Both the position numbers and the translations under genes were made by a program. The notes beneath the pieces are model-generated. The model was not told where the DNA came from. It saw only the letters and a program-made list of their open reading frames with translations, and ran no database searches. A DNA stretch of 36,459 nt, taken from NCBI GenBank assembly GCA_030018605.1, contig JASEHP010000001.1, forward strand, positions 1 to 36,459, in the 5' to 3' direction. Shown here piece by piece: positions 1,775-36,203 of this stretch. This DNA comes from Thermodesulfovibrionales bacterium. Lineage in GTDB: Bacteria > Nitrospirota > Thermodesulfovibrionia > Thermodesulfovibrionales > UBA1546. The first letter of the stretch is position 1; every line of letters starts with the position of its first letter.

Positions 1775-2635
1775 TTATTTAAGTGATAACTTTACCAGTT
1801 TCCCTTTTGTCTCACAGCCCTCTGCACACCTGCCGCAGTAGATGCAGTTTATATCTCTGAGTCCGGGTTGGTCAATGTGTCGGGCTATTTTCACGTTCAT
1901 ATAACATAATCTATCACAGAGGTTGCACTCGCCGCACTCTCCCGGGTAGTATTTGAGTTTAAGGAGACTTACCTTATTAAACAATCCGTAAGTCTTTCCA
2001 ACAGGGCATAATACCCTGCACCATGTCCTCGGGAATATGTATTCAAAGACAAGCAGAAAGACTATAACCCCGCCTGAATATACAAGCACCGAAGGCTCAA
2101 ACGGCAGATTAAGGGCAAGAAAAACACCGCCTGTAATGAATCTAAAAAAGTTTGTGAGATGAGAGATATAGTTTGTAAAGAACGGGATGCCTAACAGTCC
2201 TGAAACAACAAGCAGTCCGGCTGCTATCCCATAACCAATCTTTGGTGATGCCTTGACCTTTACCTTTGACCAGTTTTTGAATCCGTCCACAATCTCAAAA
2301 AGGAAATCCATGGGGCATACCCAGCCGCAGAATGCCCTGCCGAATATGAGATAAATGCCAATGATTGGAACAACTGCGATTAGGGTTGTAGTTGTAAAAT
2401 CCTTTGATGCTGCCAGACTCTCAAAATAAGCAAATACATCAATGAGCTTTACAAACCATCTCGCCAGAGAACCTGAGAGTCCGCCAACCAGCGCCTTTAC
2501 ACGAAAAAACTGCAACAAAAAGAATATTAGGACGCTGAACATCACAAAACGCCTGAGATTGGATAGCTTCAGTAATGAGTTCGGAGTTCGGAGTTCGGAG
2601 TTTAGTGTCTCTTTATCTTTTAACTCATAACTCAT
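1775..2635 (-). CDS. napH: NapH-type membrane-bound polyferredoxin (quinol dehydrogenase membrane subunit)
   Basis: Several TM helices, two CX3CP motifs (CGWVCP, CRVLCP), and two C-terminal CX2CX2CX3C clusters (CGECNLCDRLC, CIYCGRCAEGC). The ATG at 2635 has AGGAG 9 nt upstream and follows the napG stop. The tracked GTG at 2671 is an alternative start. Confidence 0.85.
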   Translation of the reverse strand: MSYELKDKETLNSELRTPNSLLKLSNLRRFVMFSVLIFFLLQFFRVKALVGGLSGSLARWFVKLIDVFAYFESLAASKDFTTTTLIAVVPIIGIYLIFGRAFCGWVCPMDFLFEIVDGFKNWSKVKVKASPKIGYGIAAGLLVVSGLLGIPFFTNYISHLTNFFRFITGGVFLALNLPFEPSVLVYSGGVIVFLLVFEYIFPRTWCRVLCPVGKTYGLFNKVSLLKLKYYPGECGECNLCDRLCYMNVKIARHIDQPGLRDINCIYCGRCAEGCETKGKLVKLSLK

Positions 2636-2649
2636 AACTCTTGACTCCT
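2577..2649. repeat. Two heptamer arrays in inverted orientation: (GAGTTCG)x3 + GAGTTTA, a 17-nt spacer, then (AACTCAT)x2 AACTCTT GACTCCT
   Basis: Read directly. The arrays lie at the napG/napH junction, in the first ~20 codons of napH, and encode MSYEL...SELRTPNS. Confidence 0.9.
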
Positions 2650-15887: not shown

Positions 15888-16565
15888 TTACCCGCAAAGT
15901 GCTTTAAGCTTATTTATATCCTTGATGGTGATCTTTCCGCCTTTTTCTGAGACGATGCCGAGCTTTTTGAATTTCGACATCGTCCTTATCGAAGTCTCTA
16001 CTGTTGTGCCGACCATCTCGGCAATATCCTGCTTTGTAAGTTTCATGTCGATAGTAATGCTGCCGTCTCCGAGCGGCTCGGAGCCTGCTTTATCAGCGAG
16101 CTTTATGAGCATGGAGGCTATTCTTGATTCCACTTTTTCAACAGCGATGTTTTTCAACGCCTCATGAGAGCCTTTGATCCTGTCTCCGATATTCATAGCC
16201 ATGCAATACATAAGGTTGGGGAACCTGTCGAGTATGCGCATTAAGTTGCTTCGTGATATTTTTAAAAGCTCCGCGTCATCCATCGCAACGGCATTTGCAG
16301 GGTAGGGGAAGCCTCTCATCACGGCAACTCCTCCGAAAAAATCCATTGGCAAGATGATTTCAAGTATGATTTCTCTTCCGCTCTGTGAGAGCTTGGTAAT
16401 CTTGACTTTGCCCTTAGTTACAACATAAAGCCAGTCAGACGGATCTCCCTCGGAGAATATAACCTCTTTTTTCTTAAATTTGGCAGGGATGAGGTAGGGT
16501 TTTACTTCCTCCATGTCGGAAGAATTTAACGTGCCGGATATCGGAATTTTTTTAAAGTCAATCAT
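15888..16565 (-). CDS. Crp/Fnr-family transcriptional regulator (no FNR-type N-terminal Cys cluster)
   Basis: cNMP-binding-like beta-roll (FSEGDPSDWLYVVTKGKVKI) and a C-terminal HTH (TKQDIAEMVGTTVETSIRTMSKFKKLGIV). Confidence 0.9.
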   Translation of the reverse strand: MIDFKKIPISGTLNSSDMEEVKPYLIPAKFKKKEVIFSEGDPSDWLYVVTKGKVKITKLSQSGREIILEIILPMDFFGGVAVMRGFPYPANAVAMDDAELLKISRSNLMRILDRFPNLMYCMAMNIGDRIKGSHEALKNIAVEKVESRIASMLIKLADKAGSEPLGDGSITIDMKLTKQDIAEMVGTTVETSIRTMSKFKKLGIVSEKGGKITIKDINKLKALCG

Positions 16566-16587
16566 TGTTTTAAGGAGATCGTTGCTT

Positions 16588-17367
16588 TTAACGGTTGAAA
16601 TTTTTATCGGACGGAAGATTGAGTGTTATGACCTTGCCATTTTCTCCCGGCGCTCCCATATCATTTCCGTCAAATATCAGCTTGATTCCGCCGGCATTTC
16701 CGATTTTTAGAGAAAAGCCGTTCTTTGCCGAAAGCTTTGCCGACTCGCCTTTGTTCAGAAGCAGTTCTTTTGACTCGGTATTGTCTATAATTGCAAGAAT
16801 CCATGTTTTGTCCGAAGCGAGAATCTCCAAGATGTGTTCTTTAACTGTTTTATCACCTTGCGAATTTGCCAGAATCTCTTTTTTTGTTTCTTCGGTGTTT
16901 TCTTTTCCCTGAGTCTGGCTGCTTGACTGTGGTGCAGGCAATACCGGTGATGTTTCTCCGACCAGAGGAGTTTTTGGCCCTTCCTTCAAAAGAACAAATA
17001 AGAATAAAACGGCTAATAAAGCCGTAGCTGCCGCTGCTGAAAGCGTGATTGCAGTAGCGGAGTATCTTTTATAGGGCTTCTCTTCTTTAACTGTATTTTC
17101 AGCAGGGGTAATGGGCTCAGGTTGTTTTTCAATTACAGGAGGCGATATCTTTTCTATATAAGCCTTTATAACAGCTTCGGGGTCTGTTTTAAGAAATTTG
17201 GCATACTCTCTGATGTAGCCTTTTGCGTAAACCTCTAAGGGAAGTTTTTCGAAGGTTCCTTCTTCGATTGCCTTTAGATAATCGGCTCTTATCCTCAGGG
17301 TCTTGGCAATCTCCTTGAGGTTATACCCCAATTCTTCACGCCTTTTTTCCAGGATTTTTCCGGACAC
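16588..17367 (-). CDS. rodZ: RodZ-like cytoskeleton protein (HTH + TM + DUF4115-like C-terminal domain)
   Basis: LGYNLKEIAKTLRIRADYLKAIEEGTFEKLP, a central TM, and a C-terminal ...WILAII...GNAGGIKLIFDG.... GTG start with GAGG upstream. Confidence 0.8.
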   Translation of the reverse strand: MSGKILEKRREELGYNLKEIAKTLRIRADYLKAIEEGTFEKLPLEVYAKGYIREYAKFLKTDPEAVIKAYIEKISPPVIEKQPEPITPAENTVKEEKPYKRYSATAITLSAAAATALLAVLFLFVLLKEGPKTPLVGETSPVLPAPQSSSQTQGKENTEETKKEILANSQGDKTVKEHILEILASDKTWILAIIDNTESKELLLNKGESAKLSAKNGFSLKIGNAGGIKLIFDGNDMGAPGENGKVITLNLPSDKNFNR

Positions 17368-17505: not shown

Positions 17506-18795
17506 ATGAAAAGAGTAGTTATGACAGGCATTGGCGCAATAACGCCTATTGGAAATTCATTTCGTGAATCATGGTCTGCTGTCCTAAAAGGATTATCAGG
17601 CATAGCTCCTCTAAAAAAGATTGATGCCTCGGTATTGAAATGGCGAGTGGCCGGTGAATTGAAAGGCTTTGATGCGGGGCTGTATCTGTCTCAAAAGGAG
17701 ATGACCCGTCTTGACCCCTTTGTTCATTATGCGGTTGCCGCGTCTTTTATGGCGGCAGAAGATGCGGGATTAATAGATCGAGCAGAAGAGCAGAAGAGCA
17801 GAAGAGCAGAAGTTAAAGACTCCTCACTCGTCACTCGTCACCCGTCACTTGAAAATGCCGGTGTGATTATCGGCTCAAGTCGCGGCGGGATTACTACAAT
17901 TGAAAGGGAATCGGGAAAAATATACGCATCACGCGTCACGCATCACGCATCACGCCTTTCCCCTTACCTCATGCCTTCAACAAGCGTTAATGCGGCAGCA
18001 TCTTATGTTGCGCAAAAACTTGGGATAAAGGGTCACTGTCTTGGCATATCGAATGCCTGCTCATCAGGCGCAAATGCAATAGGCGAGGCGTACAGATTGA
18101 TAAAATCCGGCTATGCAGATATGGTTTTTGCCGGCGGTAGCGAAGCTCCTCTGTGCAGATTGTGCGTAGAAGGATATGGCGTATCAGGAGCCTTGTCAAA
18201 AATAAACGATTCCTCAGCAAGCAGGCCTTTTGATAAAACGAGAGACGGTTTTGTTCTTGCAGAAGGCGCATGTGTTCTTGTCCTTGAAGGTTATGAGTCT
18301 GCGTTAAAAAGAGGGGCAAGGATTTACGGCGAGATTATCGGATACGGCAATACAACTGATGCATTCCATCAGACAAGGCCCAGCGCAGAAGGGGAGGCAA
18401 GGGCGATAAGGCTTGCAATGGAAGAAGGGGGTTTATTGCACGTAGATGTGGATTATATCAATGCGCACGGCACATCAACGCCTCTCGGCGATAAGGCAGA
18501 AACAGAAGCTATAAAGCTTGCTCTCGGCAAAAGGGCTTATGAAATTCCAATAAGTTCTGTGAAGTCCATGACAGGGCACATGCTTGCCGCGTCAGGCGCG
18601 TTTGAGGCTGCTGTTACGTTGATGAGCATTCGTGAGGGCATAATTTCTCCGGCTATAAATCTCAAAACGAAAGACCCTGAGTGCGATTTGAATTATATCA
18701 CCGAAACCAAAAACGCCGATATTAAAACCGCTATTTCCAACTCATTCGGATTTGGAGGGGTGAATGCGGTGCTGGCGTTTAGGAGGGTGAGGTGA
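17506..18795 (+). CDS. fabF: Beta-ketoacyl-ACP synthase II (KAS II) carrying repeat-encoded loop insertions
   Basis: MKRVVMTGIGAITPIG. Catalytic Cys (NACSSG) and both His motifs (NAHGTSTPLGD, MTGHMLAASG). C-terminal NSFGFGGVNA. Confidence 0.9.
   Translation: MKRVVMTGIGAITPIGNSFRESWSAVLKGLSGIAPLKKIDASVLKWRVAGELKGFDAGLYLSQKEMTRLDPFVHYAVAASFMAAEDAGLIDRAEEQKSRRAEVKDSSLVTRHPSLENAGVIIGSSRGGITTIERESGKIYASRVTHHASRLSPYLMPSTSVNAAASYVAQKLGIKGHCLGISNACSSGANAIGEAYRLIKSGYADMVFAGGSEAPLCRLCVEGYGVSGALSKINDSSASRPFDKTRDGFVLAEGACVLVLEGYESALKRGARIYGEIIGYGNTTDAFHQTRPSAEGEARAIRLAMEEGGLLHVDVDYINAHGTSTPLGDKAETEAIKLALGKRAYEIPISSVKSMTGHMLAASGAFEAAVTLMSIREGIISPAINLKTKDPECDLNYITETKNADIKTAISNSFGFGGVNAVLAFRRVR
17780..17852 (+). 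repeat. Octamer array (GAGCAGAA)x4 followed by heptamer array TCACTCG TCACTCG TCACCCG TCACTTG, inside fabF
   Basis: Read directly (17780-17812 and 17825-17852). It encodes RAEEQKSRRAEVKDSSLVTRHPSL. Confidence 0.9.
17923..17955 (+). repeat. Heptamer array ACGCATC ACGCGTC ACGCATC ACGCATC ACGCC inside fabF
   Basis: Read directly. It encodes ASRVTHHASR. Confidence 0.9.
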
Positions 18796-26576: not shown

Positions 26577-26597
26577 GAACAAAGAAACAGAGCAACA

Positions 26598-29327
26598 ATG
26601 AATAGTGCAATAGAGCAACAGAGCAGCAGGCCGGCAGTAAATAAAAAATGCTGCTCTACTGCACTACCGCTCTTCTGCGCTACTACACTGCTAATCTGTT
26701 TATTATTGTCCTCTTCCATTGAAGCGTCGGATACAGTAATACAAAAGATAAATATCGAAGGTCTCTATTCCATAAAGAGCGAAGAACTTCTGGGCATTTT
26801 AAGCATAAAGATTGGTGATGTCTTTAACCCTTCAGCTGTCCGCGCCGGGTTAAAACTGGCGTTTCTTAAAGAAGGGATATTTGAGGACATATCCGTGGAA
26901 GTTAATGACAAGGACAGGTCGCATATAATGGTAAAAGTCAGGGAGAGAGACATAATAAGGAAGATTATTATTGCCGGGAATCAACGTCTGTCAAAAAAGG
27001 TAATAAAAAATCATTTTTCATTAAAAGAAGGGCAGATTATGCGATATGACCGTATGGAAGGTGCTGCAAAGGATCTCAAGAATGAATTGTCTGAGAGGGG
27101 ATTCTCCCACGCAGATATAAAACTCGCTGTAAAGAAGACCGGCACGCCCTACAGGGTTAATATTTTACTTACGATAGAGGAGGGGATGCCCGAGATAATA
27201 AAAACCATTAAAATCATCGGGCATGCGGAAGCGAAAGAATTAATTAAGATAGAGGAAGGCGATATATATGACCAGGTTAAGTTAAGAAAAGAGATGGAGA
27301 GAATCAGGCTGCATTACAAAAAGAATAATTTTCTGAAGCCGGTTGTTGGCCCCTATACTTTCAGCAGCGGCAATCTCAGCATTAACGTATATCCAGGTAA
27401 AAAACTCGATGTTATATTTGAAAACAACTCTGCTGTGAATTCTAAGGATCTCATTAAAGAAGTGCCGTTTTTTGATGCTGAGGACTTCAGAGATGACCTT
27501 GTAGAAGAGGCGGTCTCAAGGATTATTTCTTCGTATCATGACAAGGGCTTCCCTTTTGTTCAGGTTGCGCCTGTTATAACTTCGGATAAAGAAACAGTCA
27601 GTGTGCGGTTCTTTATTTTTGAAGGGAGCAGGGTTTTTGTTAGTTCTATAACTTTTGATGGCATAACAATATCAGAGAAAAATCTGAAAGAGGCAATGTC
27701 ATTGAGAGAAAAGAAGCTGTACAATCCGGATCTCGTTGAACAAGACAGAGAAACATTAACAGAGTTTTACAATGCGCTTGGTTATCTAAGCGCCGGTGTG
27801 GATGACGTAAGGGTTTCAATAAAAAATTCCGGGGCAGACATCAATATAAAGATTACGGAAGGCACAAAAACCATAATAGAAGGCATCGAGATAAAAGGGG
27901 CAAAAGTTGTCCCGAAAGCAGAGATAATAAAGGCTGTGAGGATAAAGGCAGGGAATTCCTATAATGCAGTTGACATATCAGATGCGAGATACAGGATTAT
28001 AAATCTTTATGAAAACAGGGGTTTTATTGACGCAAGGGTTGATATAAAACAGGAAAGCGGAGAAAAAGGGACAAAAATTATTTTTGAGATAGGAGAGGGT
28101 AATATTACGCTTTTTGGAAAGACTGTAATAAGCGGCAATACAGAAACAAAAAATGAGGTAATAAATAGAGAATTTCTCCATGAAAACGGCGCTCCCTTCA
28201 ATCCTTCTCTCCTTGCAAAAACACGGCAGAGACTTTACAATCTGGGTTTATTTACAGACGTGGATGTGGATGCGATAGAAAAAGAAGGGGATAGGAAGGA
28301 CGTTCATGTCAGAGTTAAAGAAGGAAACGCTGGTGCTGTTGAGTTTGGCGTCGGATACGGGGATTACGAGCGGTTCAGAGGGTCATTTGATGTTAGCTAC
28401 AGGAATCTTTTTGGAATGAACAGGCAGATATCGTTCAGGACAGAGATAAGTTCTATTGAACAGCGATATATAATTAATTATACCGAGCCGTGGTTTTTAG
28501 GCAGGCGTCTTCCATTTAAAGCGCTGCTCATAAAAGAAGAAAGGACAGAAAAAACCATCGAGACCCGTGAGACGCGGTATAAACTTAGGAGGCACACTGC
28601 AAACGTAGGCTTTGAGAAGAAATTCAGCGAAAGGGTGAAGGGTGAGATTTTTTATGATTTTTCATTAGTCAAAACTTTTGAGGTAAAGCCTGATGTTATC
28701 CTTACGAAAGAAGATACTGGAACACTTGCAATTGCAGGGATAAGGCCGGGTATAGTTTACGATACGAGGGACAATCCTTTTGACCCCAGAAAAGGCGTGC
28801 TTGCAGGGATATCCGTGAAAACCGCATCGGGATACCTTCTGTCAGAAACTGATTTTGTAAAGGCAGTTCTCAACGGAAGCGCTTATAAAGAGTTAAATAA
28901 AAATTTTGTTGTTGCGGTTTCTTTAAAAACCGGGATGGCTCAGGGTTTTGAAACCACAACGGAACTTCCGCTTGTAGAAAGGTTTTTTCTCGGCGGCAGA
29001 ACTACTGTCCGCGGATATGAACAGGATACGCTTGGGCCTAAAGGCGTTAACGGCTCTCCGACAGGCGGTAATGTGTTTATCCTGTCGAATCTCGAGCTAC
29101 GAACCGATGTTGCCAAAGGTTTTGGCCTTGTAACTTTTCTTGACGGAGGGAATGTGTGGAGAAAGAACAGCGATGTAAAGCTCTCAGATATGAAATATAC
29201 TGCCGGTGCAGGCATAAGATACAACACGCCTGTAGGCCCTCTGAGGATTGACTATGGCCATAAACTTGACAGAGAAAAAGGTGAAAGCAAAGGAGAAGTG
29301 CATTTCAGCATTGGTCATGCGTTCTAA
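26598..29327 (+). CDS. bamA: BamA/Omp85-family outer membrane protein assembly factor with multiple POTRA domains
   Basis: Signal/anchor, repeated POTRA-like units (I..I.I.G...), and a C-terminal beta-barrel with FFLGG..TVRGY and a terminal aromatic residue (HAF). Confidence 0.9.
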   Translation: MNSAIEQQSSRPAVNKKCCSTALPLFCATTLLICLLLSSSIEASDTVIQKINIEGLYSIKSEELLGILSIKIGDVFNPSAVRAGLKLAFLKEGIFEDISVEVNDKDRSHIMVKVRERDIIRKIIIAGNQRLSKKVIKNHFSLKEGQIMRYDRMEGAAKDLKNELSERGFSHADIKLAVKKTGTPYRVNILLTIEEGMPEIIKTIKIIGHAEAKELIKIEEGDIYDQVKLRKEMERIRLHYKKNNFLKPVVGPYTFSSGNLSINVYPGKKLDVIFENNSAVNSKDLIKEVPFFDAEDFRDDLVEEAVSRIISSYHDKGFPFVQVAPVITSDKETVSVRFFIFEGSRVFVSSITFDGITISEKNLKEAMSLREKKLYNPDLVEQDRETLTEFYNALGYLSAGVDDVRVSIKNSGADINIKITEGTKTIIEGIEIKGAKVVPKAEIIKAVRIKAGNSYNAVDISDARYRIINLYENRGFIDARVDIKQESGEKGTKIIFEIGEGNITLFGKTVISGNTETKNEVINREFLHENGAPFNPSLLAKTRQRLYNLGLFTDVDVDAIEKEGDRKDVHVRVKEGNAGAVEFGVGYGDYERFRGSFDVSYRNLFGMNRQISFRTEISSIEQRYIINYTEPWFLGRRLPFKALLIKEERTEKTIETRETRYKLRRHTANVGFEKKFSERVKGEIFYDFSLVKTFEVKPDVILTKEDTGTLAIAGIRPGIVYDTRDNPFDPRKGVLAGISVKTASGYLLSETDFVKAVLNGSAYKELNKNFVVAVSLKTGMAQGFETTTELPLVERFFLGGRTTVRGYEQDTLGPKGVNGSPTGGNVFILSNLELRTDVAKGFGLVTFLDGGNVWRKNSDVKLSDMKYTAGAGIRYNTPVGPLRIDYGHKLDREKGESKGEVHFSIGHAF

Positions 29328-36129: not shown

Positions 36130-36139
36130 GACCTTAAAA

Positions 36140-36198
36140 TTCCAAATTCCAAATTCCAAATTCCAAATATTTGGTTATTGAGATTTGGTCATTGGTCA
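36140..36198. repeat. Heptamer arrays (TTCCAAA)x4, then TAT, then TTGGTTA TTGAGAT TTGGTCA TTGGTCA
   Basis: Read directly. They fill the spacer between the GGDEF fragment stop and the MglA-like start. Confidence 0.9.
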
Positions 36199-36203
36199 TT
36201 TTC

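Follow-up and report, generated by a model that had tools for sequence, protein, structure and literature searches.

In-frame heptamer and octamer arrays in two surface loops of a KAS II paralogue from a Thermodesulfovibrionales bacterium

Geobacter metallireducens has 49 copies of 'Gmet_H4', in which the heptanucleotide GGGACCG is repeated four times in tandem, as well as sites with four tandem octanucleotides that are paired on opposite strands; these repeats were taken to be RNA elements with a regulatory role or sites at which regulators bind (Aklujkar et al. 2009, PMC2700814). Four units are also preferred by the heptamers of Xanthomonas (GGGAATC) and Nostoc (GGGGAYT), which avoid coding DNA (Rehm et al. 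2015, PMC4692102). The TAACTGA-type heptamers of Beggiatoaceae and cyanobacteria, together with the cyanobacterial short tandemly repeated repetitive (STRR) sequences, occur as 2–6 direct copies with a patchy distribution; the TAACTGA repeats show strain indels 'in 7 nt increments', are translatable as LSVISYQ in reverse orientation, and lie overwhelmingly between genes, ahead of start codons; a single unit dominates, and a role in regulating translation has been proposed (MacGregor 2015, PMC4679880). A literature search on heptamer repeats in Nitrospirae or Thermodesulfovibrio found nothing relevant. Here we describe three such arrays in a single gene of an uncultured Nitrospirota bacterium of the order Thermodesulfovibrionales (assembly GCA_030018605.1, 1.72 Mb in 277 contigs, G+C 43.8%; labelled G000). 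The window, that is, the whole stretch of DNA that was analysed, comprises 36,459 nt (contig JASEHP010000001.1, positions 1–36,459; C111), and the gene (17506–18795, + strand) is an intact open reading frame (ORF) of 429 aa encoding a paralogue of the KAS II type of β-ketoacyl-acyl carrier protein (ACP) synthase (KAS), 'FabF2'. The arrays probably reflect a lineage-specific, burst-type amplification of repeats, with selection keeping frame-preserving inserts in tolerant loops, and not phase variation.

The arrays were called with Tandem Repeats Finder (TRF), the boundaries of which blur the unit count by about one unit. Array 1, (GAGCAGAA)x4.1 with 100% match (17780–17812, +), encodes RAEEQKSRRAEV and adds 24 nt (8 aa). 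Array 2, (ACTCGTC)x4.4 with 87% match (17819–17849, +), is a rotation of TCACTCG, encodes SSLVTRHPSL and adds 21 nt (7 aa), as does array 3, (ACGCATC)x4.6 with 92% match (17924–17955, +), which encodes (Y)ASRVTHHASR. TRF and the ORF bore out the claim of a first-pass annotation that three in-frame arrays interrupt an intact KAS II gene: all three lie in one open frame and span 176 nt, and the peptides quoted there, RAEEQKSRRAEVKDSSLVTRHPSL and ASRVTHHASR, are present in the translation. Its spacing was correct for array 3, placed about 70 nt further on (74 nt beyond array 2), but not for the gap between arrays 1 and 2, which is 6 nt by TRF and not 12 nt. Second-order Markov shuffles of the 1.72-Mb genome gave 0–2 (period 7) and 4–6 (period 8) arrays of at least 24 nt, compared with 256 and 194 in the real genome, and the chance expectation is about 0.1 such arrays per 36-kb window. 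Since genome-wide shuffles yield almost none, the occurrence of three arrays within 176 nt is not due to chance. As tandem 7- or 8-nt units in about four copies and far above chance, the arrays belong with the STRR, the long simple sequence repeats (SSRs) and Gmet_H4.

The origin of the arrays could be read from empty and filled alleles in relatives, which were Nitrospirota/Thermodesulfovibrionales metagenome-assembled genomes (MAGs; G labels), and in 120 metagenomic orthologues (P0001–P0120; 65–85% identity); 121 sequences were aligned. Arrays 1 and 2 occupy loop A (residues 90–118; 17773–17859, +), which in the alignments is 29 aa long in the window and 8 aa in empty alleles, while array 3 occupies loop B (residues 134–150; 17905–17955, +), located before the conserved LSPYLMP and 17 aa long in the window and 10 aa in P0012. 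The empty loop A of G009, G001 and P0015 reads TTA(G/A)TGCAGAAG TCACTCG CTTCAGGCGG, also written GTGCAGAAG-TCACTCG-CTTCAGG. Exactly at those two adjacent words, the window contains GAGCAGAA x4 and then TCACTCG x4; the native seed under array 1 is GWGCAGAAG and that of array 2 is the single native TCACTCG. Array 1 is missing in the genus relatives G008, G006 and G003. These three share array 2 with the window, and it is absent in G009, G001 and P0015. In loop B, P0012 has the unexpanded TACGCATCACGCATTTCC (1.9 units) and is exactly 21 nt shorter, whereas the window, G008, G006 and P0015 have 4.6–4.7 units of array 3. Because the empty alleles already hold the unit that was later multiplied, each array is a native 7–8-nt seed with three units added in place (+24, +21 and +21 nt). 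The loop A of the window exceeds the empty allele by 63 nt, i.e. by +24, +21 and a remainder of about 18 nt shared with G008; this remainder may be an older, decayed segment, although divergence is too high for exact bookkeeping.

Rickettsia palindromic elements (RPEs) are dispersed mobile palindromes of 100–150 bp that are inserted as a unit. The arrays resemble them as selfish or neutral repeat DNA that is tolerated and translated in essential proteins at permissive surface positions, and differ from them in that native words of 7–8 nt are amplified in place. Mobile palindromic inserts similar to RPEs or miniature inverted-repeat transposable elements were rejected as a source of the arrays, the empty alleles holding the amplified seed word.

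We propose a mutational process by which short native words of 7 or 8 nt are multiplied where they stand to about four units (approximately 31 nt); it would be active genome-wide in the source bacterium and its relatives. Within genes, purifying selection would purge frameshifts, stops and disruptions of the fold, and what remains would be arrays in which three units have joined the native one, lengthening surface loops that tolerate it by 7 or 8 residues (+21 or +24 nt). In the window gene, this would have happened at least twice in loop A and a single time in loop B. A frameshifted intermediate in an aminoacyl-tRNA synthetase gene would be lethal, so one event most likely supplied all three units, either by reiterative slippage or by copying from another array with the same unit. 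There is good support for the selective filter: the +3-unit class is enriched in coding DNA, the steps measure 7 or 8 residues, out-of-frame alleles are absent and the inserts lie in loops. The arrays look like tolerated mutational by-products rather than genetic switches.

Both loops were hit recurrently among the orthologues, and by various units. With TRF run on 18 genomic orthologues, the units observed across orthologues were ACTCGTC, TCGTCCC, GAGCAAC, ACTCGAA, CAGCTAT, ATACAGA and (in L018) ACGCATC in loop A, and ACGCATC, CAGGATG+AACTCAT, TCAGCGA+AAAGCTG, AGCTCTC, ACGCCTC and CTATCGC in loop B; nearly all of these arrays were 31–34 nt long. In the 120 metagenomic orthologues, loop A measured 8 (empty), 15, 22, 29 and up to 59 residues, and a step from 10 to 17 also occurred. 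Loop B stepped from 10 (empty) to 17 and from 29 to 36 residues, with 17 aa in 80 of the 121 aligned sequences, and the RELEK-type loop B had only 10 (n=1), 17 (n=78) or 20 (n=2) residues. Clean pairs of empty and filled loops were ISFNSSLDMG and ISFNSSLVTRHSSLDMG, RELEKIYASR and RELEKIYASRITHHASR, and QENSGCRIKTV and QENSGCRIQDAGFRIKTV. The self-match of residues at lag 7 was 14.6% in the loops, compared with 7.2% in the core and 5–7% at other lags. Equal loop lengths were kept over more than 30% protein divergence, and more than 140 orthologues yielded neither an out-of-frame nor a single-unit variant. A metagenome-wide pattern scan with exact flanks and a variable gap returned no match for array 1 and one match, of 4.7-unit length, for array 3. 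Among close relatives, the types of loop A and loop B combined as mosaics, which suggests intragenic recombination or recurrent gains and losses; G003 and G006 (L004 and L005) are 93% identical in DNA, yet the loop B of G003 is unrelated and 36 residues long.

One orthologue was truncated. In G010 (C9; L017, approximately positions 700–820), a murD-like 3' end joins (CAGGATG)n and the first 144 KAS codons are missing. The copy was rejected as a frameshifted allele: the 3' end of murD is fused to the loop-B array and the unit count is not changed. The junction is either an assembly chimera at the repeat or a real recombination or rearrangement between arrays.

Frame switching by slippage was implied by the first-pass annotation, and the locus would then be a contingency locus in which slippage-prone arrays turn the KAS paralogue on and off by single units. 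The unit is not a multiple of three, a property shared with the in-frame tandem units of contingency SSRs in Haemophilus and Neisseria (PMC2651432, PMC3315296), so that one unit gained or lost shifts the frame; in addition, the gene looks like a dispensable paralogue. In contingency loci units are numerous, close strains vary and include out-of-frame states, and the genes concerned act at the surface or in host interaction (PMC2651432, PMC3315296), but none of these hallmarks holds here. The window gene has only about four units per array (4.1–4.6), and arrays of at least 42 nt are rare genome-wide. Every orthologue is in frame, whether genomic (20) or metagenomic (120), with loop differences of 7 or 8 residues only and with equal lengths persisting beyond 30% protein divergence, and the sole truncated copy (G010) is a murD junction at an array and not a frameshift by unit count. 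Similar arrays also occur in genes that have to stay on, namely those of aminoacyl-tRNA synthetases, MurE and Dxs. The short length of the arrays, their stability across divergence and their presence in such genes make phase variation very unlikely. The related proposal that the unit number is constrained to keep the frame was upheld by the lack of out-of-frame alleles and by the enrichment of the +3-unit class in ORFs.

This enrichment emerged from a genome-wide census, in which genes were called with a simple longest-ORF heuristic (coding fraction 0.90). The 1.72 Mb contained 431 period-7/8 arrays of at least 24 nt, approximately 100 times as many as the shuffles; 181 were located deep within ORFs and 56 close to their ends, 57 straddled an ORF end and 137 were intergenic. 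The arrays are thus not special to the window KAS, with about 180 deep in ORFs of the genome, including those of essential genes. More than half (237; 55%) were inside ORFs, although intergenic DNA was still enriched in arrays relative to its 10% share of the genome. The likeness to cyanobacterial and sulfur-bacterial heptamers drawn by the first-pass annotation was apt, but the mostly intergenic placement that it associated with them does not apply here. The +3-unit class, in which a multiple of three units is added, was enriched deep in ORFs relative to intergenic or non-coding DNA (heptamers: odds ratio (OR) 2.2, p = 0.004; periods 7 and 8 pooled, deep ORF versus non-coding: OR 2.0, p = 0.0009). 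The median array length was 31 nt for 7-nt and 8-nt units alike, and lengths of 42 nt or more were rare.

Under strict criteria, the census retained 95 arrays in 72 genes. The 20 annotated carriers include the valyl-, leucyl-, methionyl- and glutamyl-tRNA synthetases (ValRS, LeuRS, MetRS and GluRS), MurE, Dxs, PurL, NrdJ, UvrA, RecG, RecJ and the CCA-adding enzyme, and some of them are truly essential single-copy genes. In ValRS (G000:C14:1166-3913; L110/L143), comparison with orthologues located a perfect (AAGTCAG)x4.6 array at residues ~727–740. This loop is short (WQTMP-HEGESIM) in array-poor families, carries different in-frame arrays in array-rich relatives and has decayed versions in two other genera. 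The ValRS of G007 contains a peptide of the LSVISYQ type known from Beggiatoaceae (KQLSVISYQL), and a KAS orthologue contains QLSAISYQLS; unlike the repeats of Beggiatoaceae and cyanobacteria, however, the arrays here have diverse units and lie mostly within genes. Likewise, in contrast to those of Xanthomonas and Nostoc, the units are not G-rich and 55% of the arrays are in ORFs.

The inserts could also be mapped onto the fold. The window KAS aligned over its full length to solved FabF chains (E 1e-109); the alignment had a gap of about 17–19 residues where arrays 1 and 2 lie and a small one where array 3 lies. Loop A is 18–19 residues longer than in solved KAS II structures and 21 residues longer than in empty-loop orthologues, in agreement with the roughly 20 added residues estimated initially; loop B is 7 residues longer than in the unexpanded allele. 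PF00109 and PF02801 (the N- and C-terminal ketoacyl-synthase domains of the thiolase-like two-domain fold) are present on the orthologues of the window KAS, and in an 82-sequence alignment the proposed Cys-His-His triad (C185/H321/H358) was invariant, as were K353 and the GFGG gating loop (F416–G418). An AlphaFold2 (AF2) model from this diverse alignment had a mean predicted local distance difference test (pLDDT) score of 92.7 and a predicted template modelling (TM) score of 0.93, with confidence dropping only over the inserts (pLDDT 52–58 at residues 91–110, arrays 1 and 2; 74 at residues 141–150, array 3). An earlier AF2 model from 51 close orthologues (pLDDT 61.5) was discarded. The model superposed on FabF of Bacillus subtilis, Synechocystis and Escherichia coli with TM scores of 0.94–0.95 and a root-mean-square deviation of ~1.9 Å, and the inserts fell in two surface loops, as the first-pass annotation had suggested checking; loop A sits between helix 71–86 and strand 119–123. 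Both loops are predicted to be disordered over the inserts. Since the core and the catalytic triad are untouched, the product is most likely an active condensing enzyme whose loops are extended by three floppy, hydrophilic stretches.

For the comparison with E. coli FabF we used a sequence whose numbering reproduces C163/H303/H340. On this basis, loop A aligns to E91–R99, the end of array 3 (A148-S149-R150, followed by LSPY) presumably corresponds to P126-R127-K128 followed by ISPF, and the last codon of array 3 specifies R150, which we take to be the counterpart of K128. In the AcpP-FabF complex, R127, K128 and R206 form region 2 of the interface, and I129-S130-P131-F132 are within its hydrophobic patch (Mindrebo et al. 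2020, PMC7138838). From its alignment to R127/K128, array 3 would abut the ACP-docking surface, with its last codon supplying a conserved basic residue.

This position of R150 at the AcpP interface raises the alternative of adaptive loop engineering, according to which the peptides were selected for changed docking of ACP or other partners and their recurrence reflects diversifying selection. All but three of the 81 RELEK-type orthologues (78) keep the +7 insert of loop B, array 3 has changed less between species than third codon positions have, and the canonical FabF of the same genomes never bears inserts. On the other hand, the inserts are predicted to be disordered, empty-loop alleles exist in close relatives, and identical peptides recur in dozens of unrelated enzymes. 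The array peptides found in many unrelated enzymes include ASRITHHASR, SSLVTRHSSL, NSELRTPNSEL, KGSKGQRVKGSK and DSPIHPFTHSP, and because they are so widely shared, it is the DNA unit, rather than the host protein, that sets the peptide sequence. We therefore consider adaptive engineering of the loops improbable and the array peptides presumably near-neutral.

The units themselves were not random. The genome contained 158 canonical units, with families of up to 15–17 arrays, above chance; exact arrays of the window units numbered 15 (ACGCATC), 7 (ACTCGTC) and 4 (GAGCAGAA), and those within one mismatch 19, 10 and 18, respectively. The octamer families AAAGGGTC, AAAGTATC and ACACTCTG had 16–17 arrays each. 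There were 122 close pairs of arrays (at most 40 nt apart), compared with an expectation of about 4. The units of a pair were usually reverse-complementary (p = 8e-44), and such pairs fold into long periodic hairpins between and within genes; three lie in the window (2577–2640, 26578–26689 and 36137–36200). The four-unit 7-/8-nt arrays and the opposite-strand pairs match the picture in Geobacter. There, however, one unit dominates each class, compared with 158 unit classes here in a Nitrospirota genome, where seeds are found in situ and individual protein loops are struck repeatedly, growing in steps of +7 or +8 residues. Although typical genome-wide, inverted-array hairpins are not formed by the arrays of the window KAS. 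Arrays 1 and 2 differ in period, have a complementarity of 0.38 and fold no better than shuffles (z = +1.21), and array 3 is solitary; a role in hairpin or RNA structure was consequently rejected at this locus.

The density of arrays, determined from one 20-kb sample per genome, was 5–9 per 20 kb in three genomes of the genus, 1–6 in three other genera of the family, 9 in another family (G024, a complete 2.4-Mb genome; L137, G024:C1:892000-911999) and 0–1 in nine further families of the order. The trait is thus phylogenetically patchy within the order. Loss of mismatch repair was rejected as its cause, as MutS and MutL were found in array-rich and array-poor genomes alike.

Several points weigh against the proposed amplification in its simplest form. 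That the arrays are translated and stable in populations is something we infer, and a gain of three units from a single copy in one step is not known of simple slippage. The largest unit multiplicity was 15, compared with 3.4 for random genome heptamers, and such non-random units therefore imply a preference for certain words or spread by copying, for which plain local slippage is insufficient. Array 3 is 91–97% identical between species in which third codon positions are ~70% identical, and some arrays are perfect at insertion sites shared by many diverged orthologues (78 for loop B); this suggests homogenisation or constraint, and not simple neutral decay. In-frame cycles of contraction and re-expansion, or homogenisation, would account for perfect old arrays. 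Finally, lying at the apparent counterpart of a docking residue, array 3 might have a functional effect.

Simple slippage fails on the one-step addition, the recurrent units, the common 31-nt length and the inverted pairs, and the ~31-nt length together with the recurring units suggests an element in the mechanism that sets the length or spreads copies. One such possibility is that arrays are extended in one step by template switching or gene conversion from an array of the same unit, or by as yet unknown dedicated machinery. The size of the unit families, far above chance in exact and one-mismatch counts, the typical ~31 nt for both unit lengths, the 122 close pairs with reverse-complementary units as periodic hairpins, the patchy phylogenetic distribution, the perfect arrays at old insertion sites and the mosaics of loop types between close relatives all speak for such spread. 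The empty sites, however, hold the very unit that was later amplified, which insertion of foreign DNA would not predict; no candidate enzyme was identified, and no repair defect correlates with the arrays, given MutS and MutL in array-rich and array-poor genomes. Overall, we regard spread by copying as rather unlikely. Some weight, though still a small one, may be given to a dedicated and horizontally patchy mechanism, be it an enzyme or templated copying, that extends a 7–8-nt seed to ~31 nt in one event and would often write both arms of a hairpin together. If true, it would explain the four-unit signature in Nitrospirota, Geobacter, Xanthomonas and cyanobacteria, and how essential genes gain 21 nt without lethal frameshift intermediates.

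An artefact of assembly or binning, with mis-assembled repeats, was also considered. The assembly is fragmented (277 contigs) and one relative (G010) has a suspicious junction at an array. At 31–33 nt, however, the arrays are shorter than any read, and the frame is open with homologous sequence on either side. These arrays recur with point differences in independently assembled MAGs and in metagenome contigs, so that an artefact can be excluded for all practical purposes.

The window KAS is not the housekeeping enzyme. It scored 463 bits on PRK07314 (NCBIfam; cut-off 387) and 478.2 bits on the fabF equivalog model TIGR03150, under the curated cut-off of 493.75. A second KAS II gene, for which the first-pass annotation had advised a check, was found on contig C201 in a fabG-acpP-fabF cluster; it encodes 414 aa, is free of repeats, shares 46% identity with the window gene and, with 683 bits on the equivalog model, is the canonical copy. 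Insert-poor orthologues of the window KAS score 478–484 bits, so the sub-threshold score is due to paralogy and not to the inserts. Both KAS II genes were found in nearly all relatives searched, and the canonical FabF is without inserts throughout the family, with open frames of constant length (414–419 aa). Given the repeat-free canonical fabF in the fab cluster and the score below the equivalog cut-off, the window gene is a KAS II paralogue conserved across Thermodesulfovibrionales, and the earlier designation as an essential-type fabF did not hold. The gene is solitary and not beside acpP. Upstream of it are divergent genes of the RodZ-like (HTH_25/RodZ_C) and Crp/Fnr families (15888–17367, − strand); this neighbourhood is kept in L104, with ribonucleotide reductase downstream there, and may hint at a physiological role of the paralogue. 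Adjoining the canonical fabF, a deacetylase-like gene (L002 2743-3810, − strand; G000:C201:12175-13242) carries two adjacent in-frame heptamer arrays, TCGGAGT and CGCTAAA, with the peptides NSELQTPNSD and RLAFSVQRSA.

Precedents for these arrays exist in Geobacter, Xanthomonas/Nostoc and Beggiatoaceae; new here are the in-situ seeds, the long series of orthologues and the location of array 3 at the edge of the ACP-docking surface. Matching empty with filled alleles shows how poorly understood heptamer and octamer arrays of about four units enter protein-coding genes. For annotation, the arrays call for caution: loops may carry 7 extra residues of low complexity, family scores may fall below threshold, and contigs may break or form chimeras at arrays. 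The series of KAS paralogues (8, 15, 22 and 29 residues in loop A), together with ValRS, constitutes a natural experiment on the tolerance of loops, and the patchy distribution within the order makes it testable why four units appear at once and why the arrays are restricted to certain lineages.

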